Shown here: piece by piece, positions 20,437-42,149 of the stretch
Layout: the number at the start of each line of letters is the position of its first letter
Position numbering within the stretch: position 1 is the stretch's first letter
NCBI GenBank assembly: GCA_017999345.1
Contig: JAGNLY010000001.1
Location: forward strand, 156,535-220,534
DNA: 64,000 bases
Source of the DNA: Candidatus Woesebacteria bacterium
GTDB taxonomy: Bacteria; Patescibacteriota; Microgenomatia; UBA1400; PJMF01
Direction: 5' to 3'
The notes under the pieces: generated by a model
Seen by the model: the letters and a program-made list of their open reading frames with translations, nothing else
The model's database searches: none
What the model was told of the DNA's origin: nothing
Program-made: the position numbers and the translations under genes

Positions 20437-22116
20437 TTAATTTTGTTTAAGTTTTGCTAAATTAATATTTACCATCTCTTTTTGAAGTAACATTTTTATT
20501 AAGACTGCAATTGTGACATTATCCCATCTTAAAGATCTAATTCCTTCAACAGCATCAAATATCGAGATCGCTCGCCAAGGTTTAGTAGAATTATTAATTG
20601 TCTCCGCAGTTGTTTCATTGTTGGCAAAACCAATATTATGGTGGTCACGATGTATACCGCTATTTCTACTAAATGGACACTCTAGGTGTTGATCAAAGTT
20701 ATTTGGATCATCGCGCCAGATTGTTAGCTGTTCGCCTCCATCTCTCCAGTTTTGGACAACTTCCATGGCAATTGAAAGATCACTGATGTTTTCACCAGTT
20801 AGTGTGGTTTCTTTAAGTGTTAAAATTTCATTTTCAAATAGCCAAGTACCCAACATTGCAATTGAAAAAGAATCGGTAAAAGAATGACCATCTCTAATGG
20901 CATTAATTGTGTCTTCTATTTTCATCCAAGTTGGAACTAGTTGCTCAACATTTTTAAGCGGCTCAGTTGATTTGGAGCCGGTGGGATTAAATTCAAGCTC
21001 ATCAGGAATTTGAACTGTTATTTGTCTTGAATGAACGTCTTCAAGGACTGTGTCTGATTTCATCATTTTCTGGCTCTTTATTTTTACAGAGGTTTCACTT
21101 GTAATACCAACTTCATTTTCTAAAATATAGTTTGCCAAAATAGAGTTAATGATTTTTCTAATATTAAATCCTCTAGGTAGTTCGTAAGCAATTCCTTCAA
21201 ATCCTTCTGCTTGACCATTTAATCTATTCAATTGAATTACCATGATGTGTGCTTCGCCATTAATATTTGTAGTGATTGTGTAGGTTGATCCTTCATGAAT
21301 TTCTTGTGTTTCCGGGTTTACTTCACTGCGATTAATTAACCTTGTTCGAGTCGAACCATCTTTCATTTTAAATACAACTACAGAATAAAATTTATCACTA
21401 GCTTGAGAAAAAGTTATTCCTTCAGCACCTTCCATTACATTTGATTGTTCACTTTCTTTAACAATTAAATTTGGAGATAAAGGTATTCTTTTGCCATCAT
21501 ATTCAGCTTCAACTTTTTGGTAATGAGCATTAATAAAATCAAATTGCTCTTGTGTAAGTCGAATTGATTCAAATGAAGGGGAATTTTCAGCCATCCTTTG
21601 CATTTCTTGACTATTTCCTGTCAAACAAACTGGAAAAGAAGCAGGAAGCGATTTTTTCTCCATGATTATGGACATCAATAGTTGTTTTGGAGCTTCGCCA
21701 ATCAACGGAGGACCTGGGTCCATTGCAAAAGTTACCATAAATAAATTTTCTGCAATTTGTTGGACAGGTGGTACTTCTTCATATTCCATTCCTTTTAGTA
21801 TTTCTCTTTTGAATAATAAAGGAGTATGTCTAACTTCTTTTTTTCCATGTTCATTAACAACCTCAACGGCCAATAATTGGCTAGGAGTATGCATGACAAA
21901 TGAGCCATCAAGATTTGTTGGCAGTTCTGCAATCCGAAACTCATTAAACTCATGTTGTTTAAGAAATTGGTTTAACGCATCTCGATATCTTTCTAGATTT
22001 TCAATGGAATTTGCCAATGGTTCACGACTAAATCGATTGCCAGCGCTCACCACAAATTGTTCAAGAACAGTTCCTCTTTGTGTGATATTTTGGACAAACC
22101 TTTCCTGTCTATTCAT
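20437..22116 (-). CDS. Orphan 559-aa protein with internal degenerate Nudix-like core
   Basis: AAGGA lies 7 nt upstream of ATG 22116 (the track TTG at 22131 is less likely). The start overlaps the upstream stop by 8 nt (ATGAATAG). Residues around INGEAHIMVIQLNRLNG...YELPRGFNIRKIINSILANYILENEVGI align with the 235-aa protein and with Nudix-box spacing. No TM or signal sequence. Confidence 0.75.
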   Translation of the reverse strand: MNRQERFVQNITQRGTVLEQFVVSAGNRFSREPLANSIENLERYRDALNQFLKQHEFNEFRIAELPTNLDGSFVMHTPSQLLAVEVVNEHGKKEVRHTPLLFKREILKGMEYEEVPPVQQIAENLFMVTFAMDPGPPLIGEAPKQLLMSIIMEKKSLPASFPVCLTGNSQEMQRMAENSPSFESIRLTQEQFDFINAHYQKVEAEYDGKRIPLSPNLIVKESEQSNVMEGAEGITFSQASDKFYSVVVFKMKDGSTRTRLINRSEVNPETQEIHEGSTYTITTNINGEAHIMVIQLNRLNGQAEGFEGIAYELPRGFNIRKIINSILANYILENEVGITSETSVKIKSQKMMKSDTVLEDVHSRQITVQIPDELEFNPTGSKSTEPLKNVEQLVPTWMKIEDTINAIRDGHSFTDSFSIAMLGTWLFENEILTLKETTLTGENISDLSIAMEVVQNWRDGGEQLTIWRDDPNNFDQHLECPFSRNSGIHRDHHNIGFANNETTAETINNSTKPWRAISIFDAVEGIRSLRWDNVTIAVLIKMLLQKEMVNINLAKLKQN

Positions 22117-23599
22117 GTTTTTGTCCTTCAAAAATTTTTTTCATAGAGGTTCTAAACCAATCTGCTAAAAGATAATGGATGGGCACTTCAATTACTAACT
22201 CACCAATACTAATTTTTGCCACGCTATCTATTGCGGATGGATTTTCTACAGTTGGCCTAAGCCTAAGACCATATTTTTCTGGCGTTGATTTAATAGATTT
22301 ACTTTTTGGTGCGGCCAATCCTTCTTCAGATGGCATGGTTCTGTGAAATGCAAAATTGGTCCTCCAAGGACTTAATTTATTAAAATTTAGGTTTCCTAAA
22401 TGTCTGAGTTTTGCTACGTCAGTTTCTGGAGCATCTGTCAAGCCATCACCAAATTGATAATGCAAGGTTGCTGCTTGATTGTCATTTTCAATAATTGTTT
22501 TTATTTTAATTGCTAAAGTTTCTATTGCTAGTTTAACAAATTCTTTATCGTTCATTAAACTTTTATAAAGATCCTCTGATTTTTCAGCATCTTGCTCGCT
22601 GACTAAGCCTTTTAAAATCGCAACTTCTTTAAGCAATGCTTCTTTGAAGTTCGGAGTAAGTATTCCTAAAACTTTCATCACTTGTTCTGGAATATTTTTG
22701 TATGATTCTAAGTTAAATAAATTTTCTTGTGCGAAATCTTGTAAAAATTTATTGTAGAAAAATCTTGGATTCTTATCTACAGAATCAGATCCAGAGGAAA
22801 TCCAAGCTACAGTGGGAATTTTTTGCCACGACTCAACGTCTAGCTCAGTTGCTTTTTGTTTATATATTTCTTCACTTTCAATCCAAAAATCGGTAATTTG
22901 TCTAGTTAAATTTTCTAAATTTAAAGATTCATTAGTTTGGGTTGTTGATATTTCAATATTAATTGCAGTTTGATCAATTTCACTTTGCCCAGTTAAGATT
23001 CCTGCAAGTTGTAAAAGTTTTTGAATATATTTTTGCAGATCATCTTGAGAAACCTTATCAGAAAGGATTGGTTCAACAGCAATTTTAAGTTTTAAATTTG
23101 CTTTAATAAATGCATCTTTTTTTTGGTATTGAGAGACAATCTCCATGAGCCCAACAATATTTTTGACTACTGCTAGTTCATTAATTGTTAAGATATCAGG
23201 GTTAATTTCACCCACCCAAAGAATTCCAAGATCAAGTTCTAATGGTTGTTTATTATTTAATGTCTCTATCACTTTTTGTTGTCGATTGCTCTGTATTTCT
23301 GCAGATAAACCGCTGGTTCTCATTTCGGCAGATGGATATAACTTCCATGCAATTTCATCTTCCCAAGTCTGTACACTTTCTGGAATTCTTTCGTTTTCTT
23401 TGGAATTTACAAAACTACCTGGATCTAATATTGTTTCTGCAATTTTTTGAGCGATGAGCTCTGCTTCAGGAAGTGCTGGATCTGTTTCAACGACAAGCTT
23501 ATCTTTGACCACTTGAACTTTTTCTAGTTGTGGCGAACCGGCAGCTATTTTTTCTAGCTGATCCTGAATTGATTGCCATTGTTCTGTCTTACTAATCAT
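22109..23599 (-). CDS. Orphan 496-aa protein, unknown function
   Basis: Long uninterrupted ORF. The track start at 23794 runs back through an intrinsic terminator and into the upstream gene, so ATG 23599 (MISKTEQWQ...) is preferred and ATG 23674 is the alternative. I recognise no motif. Confidence 0.7.
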   Translation of the reverse strand: MISKTEQWQSIQDQLEKIAAGSPQLEKVQVVKDKLVVETDPALPEAELIAQKIAETILDPGSFVNSKENERIPESVQTWEDEIAWKLYPSAEMRTSGLSAEIQSNRQQKVIETLNNKQPLELDLGILWVGEINPDILTINELAVVKNIVGLMEIVSQYQKKDAFIKANLKLKIAVEPILSDKVSQDDLQKYIQKLLQLAGILTGQSEIDQTAINIEISTTQTNESLNLENLTRQITDFWIESEEIYKQKATELDVESWQKIPTVAWISSGSDSVDKNPRFFYNKFLQDFAQENLFNLESYKNIPEQVMKVLGILTPNFKEALLKEVAILKGLVSEQDAEKSEDLYKSLMNDKEFVKLAIETLAIKIKTIIENDNQAATLHYQFGDGLTDAPETDVAKLRHLGNLNFNKLSPWRTNFAFHRTMPSEEGLAAPKSKSIKSTPEKYGLRLRPTVENPSAIDSVAKISIGELVIEVPIHYLLADWFRTSMKKIFEGQKHE

Positions 23600-23634
23600 A
23601 ATAAAAATAGTTAAATCAATCTTTAAATTACCAA

Positions 23635-23665
23635 AAACTAATACTTTTTGATTAAGTATTAGTTT
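23635..23665. promoter_or_regulatory. Perfect 12-bp inverted repeat (AAACTAATACTT-7 nt-AAGTATTAGTTT), candidate operator or 5' hairpin
   Basis: Read directly from the sequence. On the minus strand it starts immediately after a TATACT -10-like hexamer (23671..23666), between the terminator and the 496-aa gene start. Confidence 0.45.
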
Positions 23666-23730
23666 AGTATACATTTTTTGAGTAATGTTGGGGAGGGGGT
23701 GGACAGTGTTGGTGGGTCTACATTTGGGAA

Positions 23731-23760
23731 CAGAAAAGGGCGACCTTGCGGTCGCCCTTT
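23731..23760 (-). terminator. Rho-independent terminator after the 235-aa gene
   Basis: The minus strand reads AAAGGGCGACC-GCAA-GGTCGCCCTTTTCTG: an 8-11 bp GC stem, a GNRA loop and a U-tract. It lies 19 nt after the stop at 23779. Confidence 0.8.
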
Positions 23761-23778
23761 GCGTTCTGTATTGCTGGA

Positions 23779-24486
23779 TTATTCGTCTGGCCAAAGGGCA
23801 TCTTTGAGAAGCCCAATGCCGGCTACGGTGAACATGTCATCCATGTCAGCGTTCTGCAGAATCTTACTGACGGGCATGAAGATGCTCGCCACAAGACGTT
23901 TACCTGCAACATCTTCTTTATCTGAGGGAATCACTTCATTTTTGAATTTGAAGTATCCCATTCCAGAAATCAGTTGCAGCGCTCGTTTGTTGACGAGCAA
24001 TGAAAAGAACCGACAGCCCTCGCCTTGATTGGTTAGCAACCAAGCAGAGTTGCTGTTGAGTGCATTGCCAAGAGGATTTGTTTTGAACGGAACGTCCAAA
24101 CCAAATTCCACTTTAGCTGTTTCTTCCGCCAAGGTCAGGTGTTGCTGGCCTGGCTTCAAAAATGCTCGCGGCAGATTCAAAACTTCGCGACCGTTTCTCA
24201 TCTCACGAATGACAGCGACGTGAAGGTTTTTGCGTGTGTGTTCTCCATTAAAGAAGTACGCCACGCTAATGCTTCCACCACCACCTTTTTCGGTGGTAAC
24301 GAATGCATCATAACCTTCAGGTCGTTTACCATAGGAGATGGCTGCGCCAAGCCGTTCCTGGAAGGTATCAATCTTTGCGACTGCGGCCATGTCAATGACA
24401 GCCCCGTCTTTCAAAGTGATGATGCCAGTCCATCCTTGACCATCATTGATGGTCACGGGTCGTACGAATTCTCTTGCAGTAGTCAT
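23779..24486 (-). CDS. 235-aa Nudix/ADP-ribose-pyrophosphatase-like fold protein with degenerate Nudix box; G+C-rich
   Basis: AAAGGAAAAG lies 5 nt upstream of ATG 24486 (MTTAREF). VAVIREMRNGREVLNLPRAFLKPGQQHLTLAEETAKVEFGL has ADPRase-like spacing, but only the final E-x-G-U of the Nudix signature is kept. The C-terminal DMFTVAGIGLL resembles the ADPRase C-terminal helix. Sampled lines give about 47% G+C. Confidence 0.7.
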   Translation of the reverse strand: MTTAREFVRPVTINDGQGWTGIITLKDGAVIDMAAVAKIDTFQERLGAAISYGKRPEGYDAFVTTEKGGGGSISVAYFFNGEHTRKNLHVAVIREMRNGREVLNLPRAFLKPGQQHLTLAEETAKVEFGLDVPFKTNPLGNALNSNSAWLLTNQGEGCRFFSLLVNKRALQLISGMGYFKFKNEVIPSDKEDVAGKRLVASIFMPVSKILQNADMDDMFTVAGIGLLKDALWPDE

Positions 24487-24574
24487 GTTACTTTTCCTTT
24501 CGCATTGGCCTACTGGCCTCCGCACTAAGATTATTTTGCTCTTGGTCTACTGACTTCGAGCGCTTTGATTGTCC

Positions 24575-24594
24575 ACCTTCCAAACATGGAAGGT
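24575..24594 (-). promoter_or_regulatory. Small hairpin in the 5' leader of the 235-aa gene
   Basis: ACCTTCCA-AACA-TGGAAGGT: an 8-bp perfect stem with a 4-nt loop, about 90 nt upstream of the start codon. Confidence 0.4.
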
Positions 24595-24613
24595 AAGAAT
24601 CTGGAATCTTTTG

Positions 24614-24729
24614 TTCACAGATCCAGTTTAGGGGCGCGAGTTTCATTTTTTTTGTCAAACTAGGGTTTTTGCAAAATTGAGCAAAAAATTAAAAAAAAAC
24701 TTGAAACACCACCAAACTGGATCTGTGAA
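24614..24729. repeat. 116-bp palindromic element with 16-bp perfect terminal inverted repeats
   Basis: TTCACAGATCCAGTTT (24614-24629) and AAACTGGATCTGTGAA (24714-24729) are exact reverse complements. Inner arms also pair: GTTTCA+T8 with A8-9+TGAAAC, and an apical TTTTTGC-8 nt-GCAAAAA. Confidence 0.7.
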
Positions 24730-24767
24730 AAAGGAAAATATTATCCAACAATTTATTAAAGAACGAT

Positions 24768-24869
24768 GGTTTTTAGTTTAGTGAGTCGACAAAGTGGGAA
24801 AAATCCTACAAGTCAACTCAATCAACGATGACTGGAAACCAAAACCAGTCAAAGTGTTCTAAACTAACC
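24768..24869 (-). ncRNA. Candidate structured RNA (unclassified three-stem element) at the 5' end of the minus-strand transcript
   Basis: Closing stem TTAGTTTAG (24773-81) / CTAAACTAA (24859-67), plus flanking GG/CC. Long hairpin GAGTCGAC..GTGGGA-AAAA-TCCTAC..GTCAACTC (24783-24819). Hairpin TGACTGG-9 nt-CCAGTCA (24829-24851). The predicted TSS of the adjacent promoter falls on the closing stem. Strand is assigned from the promoter only. Confidence 0.4.
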
Positions 24870-24872
24870 TAT

Positions 24873-24901
24873 AGTATATCAATATAATCAACAAATGTCA
24901 A
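24873..24901 (-). promoter_or_regulatory. Near-consensus sigma70-type promoter (TTGACA-17-TATACT) on the minus strand
   Basis: The reverse complement of 24873-24901 reads TTGACA TTTGTTGATTATATTGA TATACT. Confidence 0.6.
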
Positions 24902-24993
24902 GTATTTTACTCAAGTAGGCTCAAAAATTTCCTGATTTGCAGGTTGCTCCCTAAAGGATTTTAAAATATAAAATCTGATAAAAATTTTTAACC

Positions 24994-25023
24994 AAGACAA
25001 ATATTCTGCAAATGCATTATAAT
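24994..25023 (+). promoter_or_regulatory. alaS promoter (AAGACA-18-TATAAT), near-leaderless
   Basis: TATAAT at 25018-25023 ends 8 nt before the alaS ATG at 25032. No SD sequence is present. Confidence 0.5.
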
Positions 25024-25031
25024 TCTGCTAT

Positions 25032-27050: not shown

Positions 27051-29429
27051 GTGGATAAATATATGGAATTGCCCAACCTATTTTCAACCAGTTCAGACAA
27101 AGAAAATAAAATAATGACTATTTTCATTGATCTAACAGACATTAAAATTCAGTCTTTTTTACTTTCTATTGCAAATGATGGTATTAAAACATTGTCAAAA
27201 TCAGAAGTAGCTTCCTATGAAGGTGCAGATAACTGTTTGGTTCGCGTAGATGAAAGTTTGCAACAACTTGGCAAAGAATCAGAAAATGTAAGCTCAGTTA
27301 TTTTTGGACTCAACAACTCTTGGGTTAGAAGTGGCGAAGTAATTGCAGAAAAAAAACCGTTGCTTAAAAGACTCACCGATGATCTTTCACTCAAGCCAAT
27401 GGGTTTCATTGTTATTTCAGAAGCAATTGTCCAACAAAAAATTTCTGCAGATTCAATTTTTTCAGGAATTATCTCGGTTTTTAGTAGTAAAGACCTTATT
27501 TTATCGCTTGTTCATCAAGGCAAAGTTAAATCAATTGAGATTGTTGGTAGGTCTAGTGACAGCAAAGGTGATTTCTTAGAGGGCTTGGCTCGTTTTGCTG
27601 ATAAATCCAAAAAAGACGATTTCTATTTACCATCAAAAATTATTTTAGCTTCTCTTGATTTAGATGCTCAAGAACTAAAAGAGCAACAACAATATATTTA
27701 CGATTATGATTGGAAAGCTCAAACACAATTTTTAAAACCACCGACTGTAACAGCTGTTACTCAAAAAGAATATGAAGAGATGATTACCAAAGAAGCAGCC
27801 AAAGCCGTAGCTCTTCAAAAAGGTATGACCGCAGCAGCCATGACAATTATGGCAAAAAATAATTCTTCAACTGATCTTAATAAGAAAGATCTTGGATTTA
27901 GTGAAGTTTCCACAGATGATGAGTCTACTACAGACTTTGACGATAATGATTTTAATAAAGAACCAGAAAATAATGACGATGATTTTGATGTTGACTCAAA
28001 AGATGAAGCCGAAAGCCCAACTTCGTTTGGCGTGCCAATCTCAAATAAAAATTTTGATAAAGAATTGATATCTTCAAGCGCAAATAACAATCTTAAAGAA
28101 CCTGATTTTGAAGATGACAGTGAGCTAGCAGTGGATTTTTCAAATAAAGATGCTGACAAAACAGATGATTTTGGTGAAGAAACCAAGCATATTTTTGACG
28201 ATAATAGGGGCCATCATTCTAGTGTTGTTAAACCACCTGAGAAAGTTAAGAAACACTATAAAAACTTTAGACTTTATTCAATAGTAGGCTTTGTGGCTGG
28301 ACTAGTTGCTTTGGCAATCATTGCTTTTTTTGGAATTTCTTATGCATCTACAATGGAAATTGTTTTAGAGCTTGATACAAAGCCAATTTCAAAAGATTTA
28401 GAAATTACTTTGGATAGTACTGTAACTGAAAGTGACAGTGAAAATTTGATATTAGCTGCCGACAAAACCACTAAAGAAATGCAATCTGAAAGCATGATGC
28501 AAACGACTGGCATAAAGATTGTTGGTGAAAAAGCTAAAGGCAAAGTTGTGATTTATAACAATATTGTATCTGGAGAAAAATTATTAGAAAAAGGTACGAT
28601 TTTAAGTGCTGGAGATATAAAGTTTGAGCTAGATGCCGATGTGACTGTTCCAGCTGCAAATGCTCCAAGTCCAGGAAAATTGAATCCAGGAGAAATTGAA
28701 GCAACTGTGACCGCAGCTCAAATTGGTGCAGATGCAAATATTGCAGAAAAAACTGAGCTAGCAGTTGTTCCTTATGACAAAAGTTCATACTACGCCTACT
28801 CACTTGATGAAGATTTTGTTGGTGGTGCAAGTAGAGAAGTAAAAGTAGTTTCTGAAGATGATCGATCAGAATTATTGGCAGATTTGAAAAAAGAACTAAC
28901 AGAGAAAATTAATCAAGAGTTTGCGAATGAGTCTGTTGGAGGAAAATATATTTTGCCTTCAAAAAATATCATTACAGAAGACGCAAGTTTTAATTTTGAA
29001 GTAGGTAATGAAGCTGAAGAGCTTACTTTAGATTTAGCAATCGAGATAGAAGCCCTTACTTACACTGCTGAAGACTTAAAACCATTAGCAACAAAAGTGC
29101 TTGCTTCTGAAATTCCTGAAAATTATAAGTTATCAGATGCAGATCCTCAAATTCTTTCTGCCCCAACTGATACAGATTTGAATAATTTGGAAGAAGTTAG
29201 TAAAACCGTGACTTTGTCAGCCAACATTAGTTCTTTAGCTATCCCAGTTTTGTCTGAGGAAGAAGTAAGAAATGAAATTGCGGGAAAATCTTTAGATGAG
29301 GCAAAACAAATTTTAATTGATAAATCAACAATTAAAGGTGTAGAAATAACTATCAATCCAAGCATTGCAAAATCATTTATCAAGAAATTACCTGGAAATG
29401 TAGAGAAGATAAAGGTAGAATTTAAATGA
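27051..29429 (+). CDS. Large membrane-anchored protein; C-terminal baseplate-J-like region (tentative)
   Basis: GTG start at 27051; ATG 27063 or 27114 are alternatives. The N-terminal ~270 aa are cytoplasmic, followed by a D/N/E-rich linker, one TM helix (LYSIVGFVAGLVALAIIAFFGI) and an extracytoplasmic region (GEKAKGKVVIYNN...GTILSAGDIKFELDADVTVPAA). From memory, that region is reminiscent of proteins annotated baseplate J/gp47-like in CPR genomes. Confidence 0.6.
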   Translation: MDKYMELPNLFSTSSDKENKIMTIFIDLTDIKIQSFLLSIANDGIKTLSKSEVASYEGADNCLVRVDESLQQLGKESENVSSVIFGLNNSWVRSGEVIAEKKPLLKRLTDDLSLKPMGFIVISEAIVQQKISADSIFSGIISVFSSKDLILSLVHQGKVKSIEIVGRSSDSKGDFLEGLARFADKSKKDDFYLPSKIILASLDLDAQELKEQQQYIYDYDWKAQTQFLKPPTVTAVTQKEYEEMITKEAAKAVALQKGMTAAAMTIMAKNNSSTDLNKKDLGFSEVSTDDESTTDFDDNDFNKEPENNDDDFDVDSKDEAESPTSFGVPISNKNFDKELISSSANNNLKEPDFEDDSELAVDFSNKDADKTDDFGEETKHIFDDNRGHHSSVVKPPEKVKKHYKNFRLYSIVGFVAGLVALAIIAFFGISYASTMEIVLELDTKPISKDLEITLDSTVTESDSENLILAADKTTKEMQSESMMQTTGIKIVGEKAKGKVVIYNNIVSGEKLLEKGTILSAGDIKFELDADVTVPAANAPSPGKLNPGEIEATVTAAQIGADANIAEKTELAVVPYDKSSYYAYSLDEDFVGGASREVKVVSEDDRSELLADLKKELTEKINQEFANESVGGKYILPSKNIITEDASFNFEVGNEAEELTLDLAIEIEALTYTAEDLKPLATKVLASEIPENYKLSDADPQILSAPTDTDLNNLEEVSKTVTLSANISSLAIPVLSEEEVRNEIAGKSLDEAKQILIDKSTIKGVEITINPSIAKSFIKKLPGNVEKIKVEFK

Positions 29430-30367
29430 AAAAACAACCAAGTGATGTTGTGATGCAGAGCGACATCATCGATTTATATAGAAAAGCACTCAAGCAAGGT
29501 GTAAAAATATCTCAAGTAGAAAAGAAAATTAATCACTACCTGAAGCGAATGAATGCTAGTGAAGAAATTGAAACTAAAGAAGATATTTTAAGATCTGATA
29601 ATCAAAAAAAAGTTATTCCTAAAATTGTTAGAGCTGGCGCATTTTTATTGCCAATTCTCTTTTTAATCATTGGTTTTTATTTAGTGGGCAGTGCTGTTTT
29701 GCCAATTATTGGCTCATACATCATTGTTGCTAAAGACGTTCAACTTACCAATTTAACCTCTCCAATTCCAAACGAACAAGTGATGGATGTTACTCCCTTA
29801 GTTATTACTCAAACTGAAGATTTTGAAAAATCTGAGCGTGAGCTTAGAATCATTAATGAAGAACTTGATTATACAAACCTTTCCAATTGGTTTACTTCTT
29901 CTGCATTACCTCAAATGGGATTACCGGAAGTTGATTACAATATTGAAAGCTACACCATAGATATTCCAGAAGTTGATATTAGCAATGCTGTTGTGGCTGT
30001 TGGTGGAACAGATTTAAATAGTAGCCTAATTGCATTTAAGGGAACTGCTTTGCCAGGAAATCCTGGGTCTCCAGTAATCTTTGGTCATTCAGTTTTGCGA
30101 CAATTTTATAATCCAAGTGAAAAGAATCCACGCAGATACAACTCGATTTTTAGCACAATTATGACTTTAGATATTGGTGACAAAATTTATGTTACGTCCG
30201 GAGGTGTTAAATATACTTATGCAGTTTCACTTAAAAAAGAGGTTAACCCAGAAGATGTTTATATCCTGACTCAAAAATATGATGCCAAACAATTGAAGTT
30301 AGTGACCTGCACACCTGAAGGTACTTATTTGCGTCGTGGAGTTGTAACTGCCCAACTGATAGAATAG
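29426..30367 (+). CDS. Sortase-family transpeptidase
   Basis: Contains a TM anchor, the catalytic His region VIFGHSV, the Cys motif LKLVTCTPEG (TLxTC-like) and a downstream Arg (LRRG). The start overlaps the upstream stop (ATGA). Confidence 0.8.
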   Translation: MKKQPSDVVMQSDIIDLYRKALKQGVKISQVEKKINHYLKRMNASEEIETKEDILRSDNQKKVIPKIVRAGAFLLPILFLIIGFYLVGSAVLPIIGSYIIVAKDVQLTNLTSPIPNEQVMDVTPLVITQTEDFEKSERELRIINEELDYTNLSNWFTSSALPQMGLPEVDYNIESYTIDIPEVDISNAVVAVGGTDLNSSLIAFKGTALPGNPGSPVIFGHSVLRQFYNPSEKNPRRYNSIFSTIMTLDIGDKIYVTSGGVKYTYAVSLKKEVNPEDVYILTQKYDAKQLKLVTCTPEGTYLRRGVVTAQLIE

Positions 30368-41174: not shown

Positions 41175-41268
41175 AGTAAATATATTATAAAATCACAGTG
41201 CTAATTTATAGTGGAGCACAATAAAGTTTAAGTCAAGATTAATAAAACAATAAACTATCCTATAATTA

Positions 41269-41297
41269 TTGACAAAAGCACATTCTGGAGCTATAAT
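41269..41297 (+). promoter_or_regulatory. Perfect consensus sigma70 promoter TTGACA-17-TATAAT
   Basis: TTGACA at 41269-74, a 17-nt spacer, TATAAT at 41292-97. Confidence 0.65.
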
Positions 41298-41303
41298 TAG
41301 GGT

Positions 41304-41518
41304 GTGAGATAAATTAGTTTTTTGAATTAAAGCAATTCAATTTAACACTAATTTATCGATCAAAACGCACATTAATAACTTGCAAAATACTTTATCCAAA
41401 TGAGTAGCACTTTGGGAATCATTGATTATGGTTCTTGAGGCGCTACTCATTCACATGAGTTGACATTACTCCAACTGGAGCGATGACAAACATTCATTCA
41501 AAAAAAGGATTAGACACC
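41304..41518 (+). promoter_or_regulatory. Structured 5' leader with alternative hairpins (candidate riboregulator)
   Basis: Hairpin 1 pairs GATAAATTAGT (41308-18) with ACTAATTTATC (41347-57), with an inner TTGAATT/AATTCAA stem. ATGAGTAGC (41400-08) pairs with GCTACTCAT (41442-50), and part of the latter can instead pair with ATGAGT (41455-60). Confidence 0.4.
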
Positions 41519-42046
41519 ATGAAAAAGAATATCACTATCCTAGTTCTTGCACTTGTTTTACTGTTTTTAGCCGGGATTTACAGAAAAGACGAGGCCCGGA
41601 TCTTGGAATTGGAGACGCAAGTCTCTGAGCTCCAAGAAAAAAACAACGCGTTTGCCGATCATGCCGTTGCTCTTCAAGAGCAGTTGGCTACTCTTGATTA
41701 CAATAATACTGTGATCAAGATTGTGGACAAGCAGGGGCTTTTGAATGACAGTCTTGTGTTGGGCCCATCGTTTGTTGTCTTGGAAGATGAGCTCCACTCA
41801 AAAAATGGAGAAGTTCGTCTTGTCAACACTCTGCTGGAAGCAGGGAGTAACAACTCCCTGTGGCTGTATGATGGTAGCACGGGCGAAAAGACTTATCTCA
41901 ACGCGTTCGCCGGAGAAACCGTCATTTTAAATGCGGGACCAGCGAATGAAGTAGGAGAAGTTTACCTTCAATACACAACCTGTTACACGAATAACAATTT
42001 CGCGTGTATCGGGAAGGTTTATCCAACTTCCATCAAAATCAAATAA
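41519..42046 (+). CDS. G+C-rich 175-aa membrane-anchored/secreted protein, unknown function
   Basis: ATG 41519 gives MKKNITILVLALVLLFLAG (a signal/anchor) with AAAGGA 10 nt upstream. The track start at 41483 adds 12 aa. A coiled-coil segment is followed by a beta-rich domain. Sampled lines give about 47-52% G+C. Confidence 0.65.
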   Translation: MKKNITILVLALVLLFLAGIYRKDEARILELETQVSELQEKNNAFADHAVALQEQLATLDYNNTVIKIVDKQGLLNDSLVLGPSFVVLEDELHSKNGEVRLVNTLLEAGSNNSLWLYDGSTGEKTYLNAFAGETVILNAGPANEVGEVYLQYTTCYTNNNFACIGKVYPTSIKIK

Positions 42047-42072
42047 GAAAAAGTAGCGCAAGTTAACAATGT

Positions 42073-42101
42073 GAAGAGCCTCGGCGCAAGCCGAGGCTTT
42101 T
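42073..42101 (+). terminator. Rho-independent terminator after the 175-aa gene
   Basis: GCCTCGGC-GCAA-GCCGAGGC followed by TTTTT. Confidence 0.8.
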
Positions 42102-42149
42102 TCACGCATTAATCTTAATAATTCCACAAGACACAAAAATTAATTGTTA

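Follow-up and report, generated by a model that had tools for sequence, protein, structure and literature searches.

What maintains an island of high G+C content in an A+T-rich genome? Such islands are routinely read as foreign DNA; their usual reason is a structured RNA. The question is raised here by a gene for a protein of 235 amino acids (aa) on the minus strand of a 64,000-nt stretch of a Candidatus Woesebacteria genome (GenBank assembly GCA_017999345.1, contig JAGNLY010000001.1, positions 156,535 to 220,534; hereafter the window). A preliminary description of the window proposed that the island around this gene is either a recently acquired cassette or a sequence under unusual constraint. 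The acquired cassette is not supported: the G+C excess is present in 8 of 8 orthologs, synteny extends over more than 16 kb at saturated divergence, the partner genes are host-like, and hallmarks of insertion were not found. The unusual constraint is upheld by a leader RNA with covariation support and by a coding sequence that is over-folded relative to synonymous and dinucleotide shuffles, in the case of the synonymous shuffles in every ortholog. On balance, we lean toward the reading that the island is the RNA-coding body of a vertically inherited unit, that its high G+C content is maintained and gene-specific, and that selection on the RNA is the most likely cause. The signal that is routinely taken for foreign DNA would then mark native constraint at the RNA level, and for that reason composition-based island callers would mislabel the locus.

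Composition and extent of the island

Positions 23690-24610 have a G+C content of 48.3%, compared with a mean of 34.5% (standard deviation, sd, 2.5; maximum 42.0%) for all non-overlapping segments of equal length (z = 5.5). The borders, at ~23680 and ~24640, are sharp. In 60-nt bins, the G+C content steps from 0.17 (23620-23679) to 0.52 (23680-23739) at the lower-coordinate edge, and from 0.45 (24580-24639) to 0.22 (24640-24699) at the opposite edge. The sharp island reported earlier is thus real, and its extent over the gene, the terminator, and the proximal leader was correctly given, as judged from the bin profile and from the composition of the parts: the coding sequence is 47.9% G+C, the terminator with a C-rich tract (23690-23778) 57.3%, the proximal leader (24487-24640) 46.1%, and the distal leader (24641-24872) 31.0%. 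Of the leader, only the last ~150 nt belong to the island, which further takes in the coding sequence, the terminator, and a putative C-rich promoter element. The hand counts of the preliminary description were exact (46.7% at 24241-24300, 21.7% at 22501-22560; ten ribosomal-protein genes average 34.9%), and the poly-G/C stretch that it mentioned is GGGGAGGGGGTGG at 23690-23702.

Among the 61 genes of the window defined by open reading frames (ORFs), the 235-aa gene ranks first both for G+C (0.479) and for G+C at third codon positions (GC3, 0.483). The mean GC3 of these genes is 0.237 (sd 0.064); the gene thus deviates in both composition and codon usage. The gene exceeds the window means by +0.10 at first, +0.04 at second, and +0.25 at third codon positions. 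The earlier claim was open to the objection that many native genes might share this composition. The objection applies weakly, to one further gene of the 61, at 41483-42046, with a comparable GC3 (0.479).

The island is one monocistronic minus-strand unit composed of a promoter, a 386-nt structured leader, the 235-aa gene, and a strong terminator (Table 1). The promoter has 11 of 12 consensus matches plus TG and ranks among the window's two closest matches to the consensus. Each of the 7 loci that extend far enough upstream has a promoter of the form TTGAC[AT]-N17-TATA[CAT]T in the corresponding position relative to its leader. The terminator hairpin (dG -26 kcal/mol) has an equivalent, a G+C-rich hairpin of 10-13 bp (dG -26 to -35), 3' of the gene in 8 of 8 loci; a consensus terminator scanner made no call at 23729..23766. 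A match to the Rfam family MicX, a Vibrio small RNA, at 23601-23770 (minus strand) scored 41.7 bits against a cut-off of 75; it involves a near-identical terminator hairpin and was judged a coincidence.

That the island is an assembly chimera, or that it owes its composition to an overlapping second coding or antisense function, is scarcely credible. Antisense ORFs of 116 and 129 aa do overlap the gene. However, antisense open stretches reach no greater length than in synonymous shuffles and their frame is not conserved among orthologs, and dual coding was rejected. Chimerism is excluded by locus L139 of a second, independently made assembly (GCA_964496685.1): the two sequences are 98% identical and colinear over 16 kb, with only 3 differences in 23600-25031 (1432 nt), and are 99.8% identical across the unit.

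Inheritance of the unit

Comparison of sequences among relatives indicates that the 235-aa gene is vertically inherited and not a recent insert. The eight orthologous loci come from genomes of 35-49% G+C, and in all eight the GC3 of the gene exceeds that of its neighbours, by +0.14 to +0.25. The values are 0.48 vs ~0.24 in the window, 0.39 vs ~0.25 in L001, 0.43 vs ~0.22 in L014, 0.53 vs ~0.35 in L002, 0.50 vs ~0.37 in L004, 0.57 vs ~0.40 in L012, 0.63 vs ~0.37 in L013, and 0.66 vs 0.24-0.44 in L015. The last 150 nt of the leader is likewise G+C-rich in 8 of 8 loci. The window and L001 have a common gene order over >16 kb, from cobW to yceG and rpoB, and the synonymous sites of all genes are saturated between them (proportion of synonymous differences, pS, 0.68-0.77). 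Therefore, there has been ample time for amelioration, and the excess has been kept in both lineages. The Nudix-like protein encoded by the gene is 75% identical to its L001 ortholog, and neighbouring proteins are 68-88% identical. Its closest relatives (75-82% identity) belong to an A+T-rich clade, and those in a G+C-richer clade are 53-59% identical.

Wherever a locus is long enough, the Nudix-like gene is followed by two partner genes (~500 and ~560 aa). This three-gene module occurs in 8 of 8 loci, with the same position and gene order in L001 and L139. The partner genes are host-like in composition (GC3 0.205 and 0.225), and the ranking of the loci by identity, a comparison of ranks only, agrees between the Nudix-like gene and its partners.

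These comparisons make it highly improbable that the gene was recently acquired from a donor of ~48-50% G+C and has not yet ameliorated. Such an origin would fit the codon use of the gene, which is like that of a roughly 50% G+C genome, the sharp edges of the island, and the presence of the wider family in higher-G+C Patescibacteria. However, the A+T-rich relatives L001 and L014 hold the same island at the same syntenic position despite saturated synonymous divergence, the closest proteins come from the A+T-rich and not the G+C-richer clade, and the co-inherited partner genes have host-like composition. There is no tRNA gene in the 64-kb window, a repeat search at the locus found no flanking direct repeats but only short chance repeats, no mobility genes were found nearby, and the neighbours with Pfam matches are housekeeping genes. 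Foreign origin would also leave the folding in excess of composition (see below) unexplained. The unit thus resembles horizontally acquired islands in its sharp compositional deviation and atypical codon use, and differs from them in being syntenic across saturated divergence, in having partners of native composition, and in that neither mobility genes nor tRNA genes nor repeats were found.

GC-biased gene conversion at a recombination hot spot, which would raise G+C at weakly selected sites, is an unlikely cause of the island. In its favour, the unit has 3 differences in 1432 nt between strains ~2% apart, and the flanking genes differ by 1.95-2.9%, as expected after recent exchange. A second island in the window (see below) also contains a coding sequence whose alleles seem to have been exchanged among strains that are otherwise nearly identical (68-74% identity vs 95-99% for its flanks). 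However, other nearby genes are equally undiverged (0.2-0.8%), so that a mosaic of this kind is not peculiar to the island. The G+C-rich zone instead tracks features of the transcript, starting within the leader and ending just past the terminator. Gene conversion would not be expected to make the coding sequence fold better than shuffles of equal composition, or to produce covariation in the leader.

Folding of the message and its leader

Recoding the gene with host codons gives 38% G+C; thus, synonymous choice accounts for ~10 of the 13 extra G+C points. The GC3 expected from the amino acids of the gene and host codon use is 0.24, half the observed value of 0.483. For example, 10 of 12 Arg codons are CGN, compared with 18% CGN in the background, where AGA makes up 78%. 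CTG is used at 23% vs 3% in the host and CCC/CCG at 55% vs 6%; host-rare GCG codons are used as well, and TTA and ATA do not occur. Ordinary selection for translational efficiency does not account for this usage, because the genes for ribosomal proteins, EF-G/EF-Tu, and RNA polymerase use the A+T-rich codons of the background. Translationally optimised codon use of a highly expressed gene was therefore rejected for a gene that uses the rarest codons.

The codons are also arranged in an unusual order. Folding was compared with synonymous shuffles that retain the protein and the exact codon counts, and none of 100 shuffles of the window gene was as stable as the native sequence. The z-scores of the eight orthologs are -5.6 (window), -2.9, -5.3, -3.8, -7.2, -4.5, -6.8, and -3.7. 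By comparison, 28 control genes of the window have a mean of -0.78 (sd 1.34), the adjacent 496-aa gene has -0.04, and two distant canonical Nudix homologs have -0.2 and -0.6. Against dinucleotide shuffles, the z-score is -6.45 for the window coding sequence and +0.25 for a control gene. The minimum free energy (MFE) of the coding sequence is -255 kcal/mol in native form, -215 when codon-shuffled, and -175 when recoded with host codons, so composition and arrangement each add ~40 kcal/mol. Over the whole coding region, folding energy is 15-23% more stable than in sequence-order controls.

It could be argued that the trait is translational control at the codon level, in which host-rare, G/C-rich codons slow or gate translation, or work when the major tRNAs are uncharged, and folding is a by-product. 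The use of the rarest codons of the genome (CGN, CTG, CCC/CCG) and the gene-specific, conserved nature of the trait agree with this. However, the ~40 kcal/mol that come from the arrangement of identical codons, as well as the G+C-rich untranslated proximal leader and terminator, would remain unexplained, and we regard codon-level control as improbable.

The leader has an MFE of -124.7 kcal/mol in the window, with a z-score of -7.8 against dinucleotide shuffles. The promoter and the full leader are present in the 7 loci with enough upstream sequence, and the shorter L014 holds the downstream part. RNAalifold predicts 59 pairs in six helices for the leaders, and 34 of the 59 have changes on both sides (compensatory changes). 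Paired cells amount to 91%, compared with 34-42% in slid controls, and the observed values were not attained in any of 500 shuffles. Helix H1 is 91% paired and nearly invariant. Pairing in the long-range helix H3 extends to 98% of cells, and both partners have changed in 17 of its 22 pairs; the 3' arm of this helix forms the upstream edge of the G+C island. The single-stranded box that follows H1 is a run of essentially invariant columns across 7 loci (ACCATCGTTCTTT.A.A). A search of Rfam 15 with the leader gave no match at the gathering score, and relaxed thresholds gave sub-threshold matches of hairpin type only. Covariation among the leaders supports a conserved, putatively cis-regulatory RNA outside the described Rfam families. 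It is a new candidate structured leader RNA in a phylum with few known regulatory RNAs.

A GCGGAGG motif is duplicated in most orthologs, which places a second GGAGG resembling a Shine-Dalgarno (SD) sequence ~20 nt upstream of the real SD. A pairing of 9-10 bp between the SD and an anti-SD segment is predicted in the window, L012, and L015; in L013 the pairing is weak, and L001, L002, and L004 lack it. A universal SD-sequestering helix was rejected, being unsupported in these last 3 of 7 loci. A 5'-3' panhandle (inverted repeat I3) was also rejected, as the sequences of L001 and L014, read by eye, do not preserve it. When viral contigs were scanned for the invariant 14-mer, only chance matches came up, including one in a G+C-rich phage fragment (L077). 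We infer that the leader controls translation or mRNA stability.

Based on these results, selection on the RNA could have shaped the unit in the following manner. The proximal leader would be G+C-rich because it is part of the conserved folded cis-regulatory RNA. In the coding sequence, synonymous sites would have been shifted to G/C-ending codons of the CGN and CTG type, and the codons arranged such that the whole mRNA is more base-paired than the protein sequence and the composition require. The selected trait would be global foldedness, attained partly via G+C enrichment and partly via arrangement. A folded message may in turn be compact, nuclease-resistant, and long-lived. The selected property seems to be global foldedness and not a specific architecture, because pairings are not conserved between orthologs. 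Synonymous sites have apparently been recruited for global folding in eight lineages, which would be a case of selection on mRNA foldedness without conserved structure. The second island of the window repeats both high GC3 and excess folding, a pattern that we count for selection on RNA.

Several points weigh against selection on RNA folding. Excess folding is not unique to the 235-aa gene, because the ribosomal-protein gene rpsG reaches a z-score of -4.7. A conserved structure of the coding sequence was looked for and rejected, with an RNAalifold covariation term of +0.52 and changed pairs canonical no more often than in slid controls. Because its pairings are without covariation, the claim of structure in the coding sequence is one of thermodynamic z-scores only. 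G+C richness and folding are separable within the superfamily, since the distant homolog in L009 (see below) is an island without excess folding. Message stability as the selected trait is something that we infer, and host-rare codons are expected to slow translation, a poor fit with a simple highly-expressed reading.

Some features of the unit have precedents. One is the genome-scale ordered RNA structure (GORS) known from certain RNA viruses, in which excess stability likewise extends over whole coding regions and pairings are not conserved between relatives. It differs in that the present case is a 0.7-kb bacterial chromosomal mRNA, to which the functional rationale of the viruses does not transfer. 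The unit also resembles 5' mRNA stabilisers and long regulatory leaders, such as the ompA 5' untranslated region (UTR) and the STAB-SD of cryIIIA, in its long structured 5' UTR, its strong promoter, and, in most orthologs, its second SD-like GGAGG; these have no sequence relationship to the leader, whose own stabilising role would be hypothetical. High G+C content is an established guide to the discovery of structured RNAs in A+T-rich genomes (PMC6429828). The proximal leader conforms to this 'GC-IGR' (G+C-rich intergenic region) principle of riboswitch and non-coding RNA discovery, being part of a long, G+C-rich, conserved intergenic RNA in a 35% G+C genome. It differs in belonging to no Rfam family and in that the G+C-rich zone runs through an entire protein-coding sequence, which is outside the principle. 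Thus, the signal of a G+C-rich structured RNA is known, and what is new is its extension over a whole protein-coding message together with an undescribed leader RNA.

Table 1. Features of the Nudix-like unit, its partner genes, and the second G+C island, as predicted from the sequence (window coordinates)
Feature	Position	Strand	Description
Sigma-70-type promoter	24873..24901	-	-35 TTGACA (24901-24896), 17-nt spacer, extended -10 TGaTATACT (hexamer 24878-24873)
5' leader	24487..24872	-	386 nt; 281-343 nt in orthologs; G+C-rich in last ~150 nt only
Helix H1	24768..24846 (including H2)	-	GGUUUUGGUU (24846-24837) with AACUAAAAACC (24778-24768); encloses H2
Hairpin H2	24820-24782	-	Compensatory changes in 11 of 15 pairs
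Single-stranded box	24753..24767	-	AUCGUUCUUUAAUAA; 15 nt, directly 3' of H1
Anti-SD segment	~24738-24729	-	UUUUCCUUU; just 5' of H3; placed by eye on the sequence
Long-range helix H3	24728-24706 with 24637-24615	-	22 bp; variable apical insert; also inverted repeat I1
Hairpin H4	24561-24538	-	Proximal leader, predicted
Hairpin H6	24523-24502	-	GCGGAGGCC-AGUA-GGCCAAUGC; 98% paired
Ribosome-binding site	24501-24494	-	ATG at 24486
235-aa gene	23779..24486	-	Predicted degenerate Nudix-fold protein of ADP-ribose-pyrophosphatase type
Intrinsic terminator	23729..23766	-	GGGCGACC-GCAA-GGUCGCCC within AGAACG/CUGUUC extension, then UUUUCUGUU (U-run)
C-rich tract and extended -10	23666..23702	-	CCACCCCCUCCCC (23702-23690), then TGTATACT (23673-23666)
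Partner genes	20437..23599	-	496 aa (23599-22109); 559-564 aa (22116/22131-20437)
Second G+C island	41259..42104	+	Promoter 41259-41297, leader ~215 nt, gene 41483 or 41519-42046, terminator ~42072-42104

The encoded protein and its partner genes

As modelled, the 235-aa protein has a Nudix fold of the ADP-ribose-pyrophosphatase type with a degenerate catalytic motif. Alone, it has no match in Pfam, NCBIfam, PHROG, PADLOC, or PDB sequences, and PF00293 (NUDIX) does not match it even at E<=1. Its NCBI entry is a hypothetical protein from a metagenome-assembled genome, and relatives are labelled Saccharibacteria or Patescibacteria. It has ten close homologs. An exhaustive search yielded a family of 197 clusters at 50% identity, and it is only via this family that the fold was resolved; the subfamily itself is rare, and metagenome and genome scans added few loci. 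PF00293 is matched by 62 of 76 aligned family members (75 relatives and this protein), and the family profile matches ADP-sugar pyrophosphatases at 1e-7 across the region of the Nudix box. AlphaFold gave a predicted local distance difference test (pLDDT) score of 43 from the 10 close homologs and of 90 from the 76 sequences, and the latter model was used. Every one of its top 50 Foldseek matches in the PDB is a Nudix enzyme, and most act as pyrophosphatases on ADP-ribose or ADP-sugars, with probability 1.0 and template modelling (TM) scores of 0.5-0.68.

The Nudix box A-x-R-E-x-x-E-E-x-G reads A120-E-E-T-A-K-V-E127-F-G129 in the window protein, with E122, T123, V126, and E127 in place of the R, E, E, and E of the family. 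The catalytic R-E is absent from all ten close homologs, and E-E is retained in most. By the usual marks of a Nudix protein, the alpha/beta/alpha fold is present, whereas the catalytic box GX5EX7REUXEEXGU is degenerate and the Pfam cut-off is not reached. The protein resembles Nudix enzymes of the ADP-ribose pyrophosphatase (ADPRase) type (NudF, Rv1700, human NUDT5, and the B. methanolicus Nudix activator) in its N-terminal beta domain and Nudix alpha/beta/alpha core. It differs from them in having lost the Arg, the first Glu, and one member of the EE pair, and in that its subfamily always has two orphan genes at its side and a long structured leader in front. We know of no such context for ADPRases. 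No publication about this gene, or about Nudix genes of Saccharibacteria, came up in a literature search.

The partner genes evolve fast, with 36% and 49% identity to L001, compared with 68-88% for neighbours. Their products have no Pfam or PDB match, even with profiles, and are orphans. The distant canonical-Nudix homologs are without the two partner genes. The locus therefore holds an uncharacterised three-gene module headed by a putative degenerate Nudix protein. A C-rich tract and, after it, TGTATACT, GGTATAGT, or GCTATAGT occupy a constant position in 8 of 8 loci, and the tract together with the extended -10 is likely to be a separate promoter of the downstream two-gene operon, to judge by its sequence.

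One distant canonical-Nudix homolog, at L009 9989-10651 in another Patescibacteria genome, also forms a strong G+C island (0.56 vs 0.41; GC3 0.575), with no excess folding (z -0.2) and no long leader. In the G+C-richer genomes, the module adjoins an ABC efflux cluster of the YknX/MacB type (L002 11962-14993, L004 14190-17213, L012 5469-6955). The cluster includes a MarR regulator in L012, and the window has no such cluster here. A perfect 12-bp inverted repeat, AAACTAATACTT / AAGTATTAGTTT, at 23635-23665 falls within what is presumably the 5' UTR of the 496-aa gene; similar hairpins occur in L001 and L014.

The second island and minor features

The second island is laid out like the first and holds a gene for a membrane-anchored orphan of 176 or 187 aa, located between rpoC and rpsL, with a GC3 of 0.479 (0.44-0.48 in orthologs). 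Its promoter, CCTATAAT-TA-TTGACA-N17-TATAAT, is a perfect consensus. The folding z-scores are -6.1 for the leader and -4.4 for the coding sequence. In contrast to the Nudix-like gene, this gene is hypervariable: in comparison with the near-identical strains L016, L017, and L138, the coding sequence (41519-42046) has 68-74% nucleotide identity, while rpsL and rpsG have 99% and the leader and flanks of the island 95-99%. These identities suggest that alleles have been replaced, or that selection has been diversifying, while the frame around them stayed conserved.

The promoters of the two island gene families also have a motif in common. In the window and 17 cellular loci (~0.3 Mb), CCTATAAY-N0-3-TTGAC occurs only at these promoters: at 41259-41273 in the window, and at L002 5788, L004 9740, L011 2622, L012 876, L013 4129, L015 2016, L016 4619, and L017 3014. 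It lies directly upstream of the -35 box and overlaps it, and is absent from the Nudix promoters of the window and L001. The motif may be the site of a shared regulator or a tandem -10.

It is tempting, though speculative, to see the two islands as members of a small, hitherto unrecognised class of 'armoured' messages in Patescibacteria, characterised by a common TCCTATAAY-TTGAC promoter element, a long structured leader, a synonymously G+C-recoded and globally over-folded coding sequence, and a strong terminator. Such messages would be selected for global RNA order, much as in GORS, so that a few of them persist in ultra-small, slow cells, and the leader would be a new sensor RNA for a catalytically degenerate Nudix protein that works with two orphan partners. 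If the promoter motif and the architecture define a regulon, it could be found genome-wide by a screen for GC3 and folding z-score.

Two further observations concern genes elsewhere in the window. The 788-aa gene within 27063-30367 is called as 521 and 262 aa in L139 (4053-7407), where a sortase is reduced to a fragment of 124 aa; these L139 fragments may be pseudogenes or assembly errors. On the plus strand, a TATAAT box (AAGACA-N18-TATAAT, 24994-25023) ends 8 nt before the start codon of alaS (25032), and because of this short distance the alaS mRNA may be leaderless.

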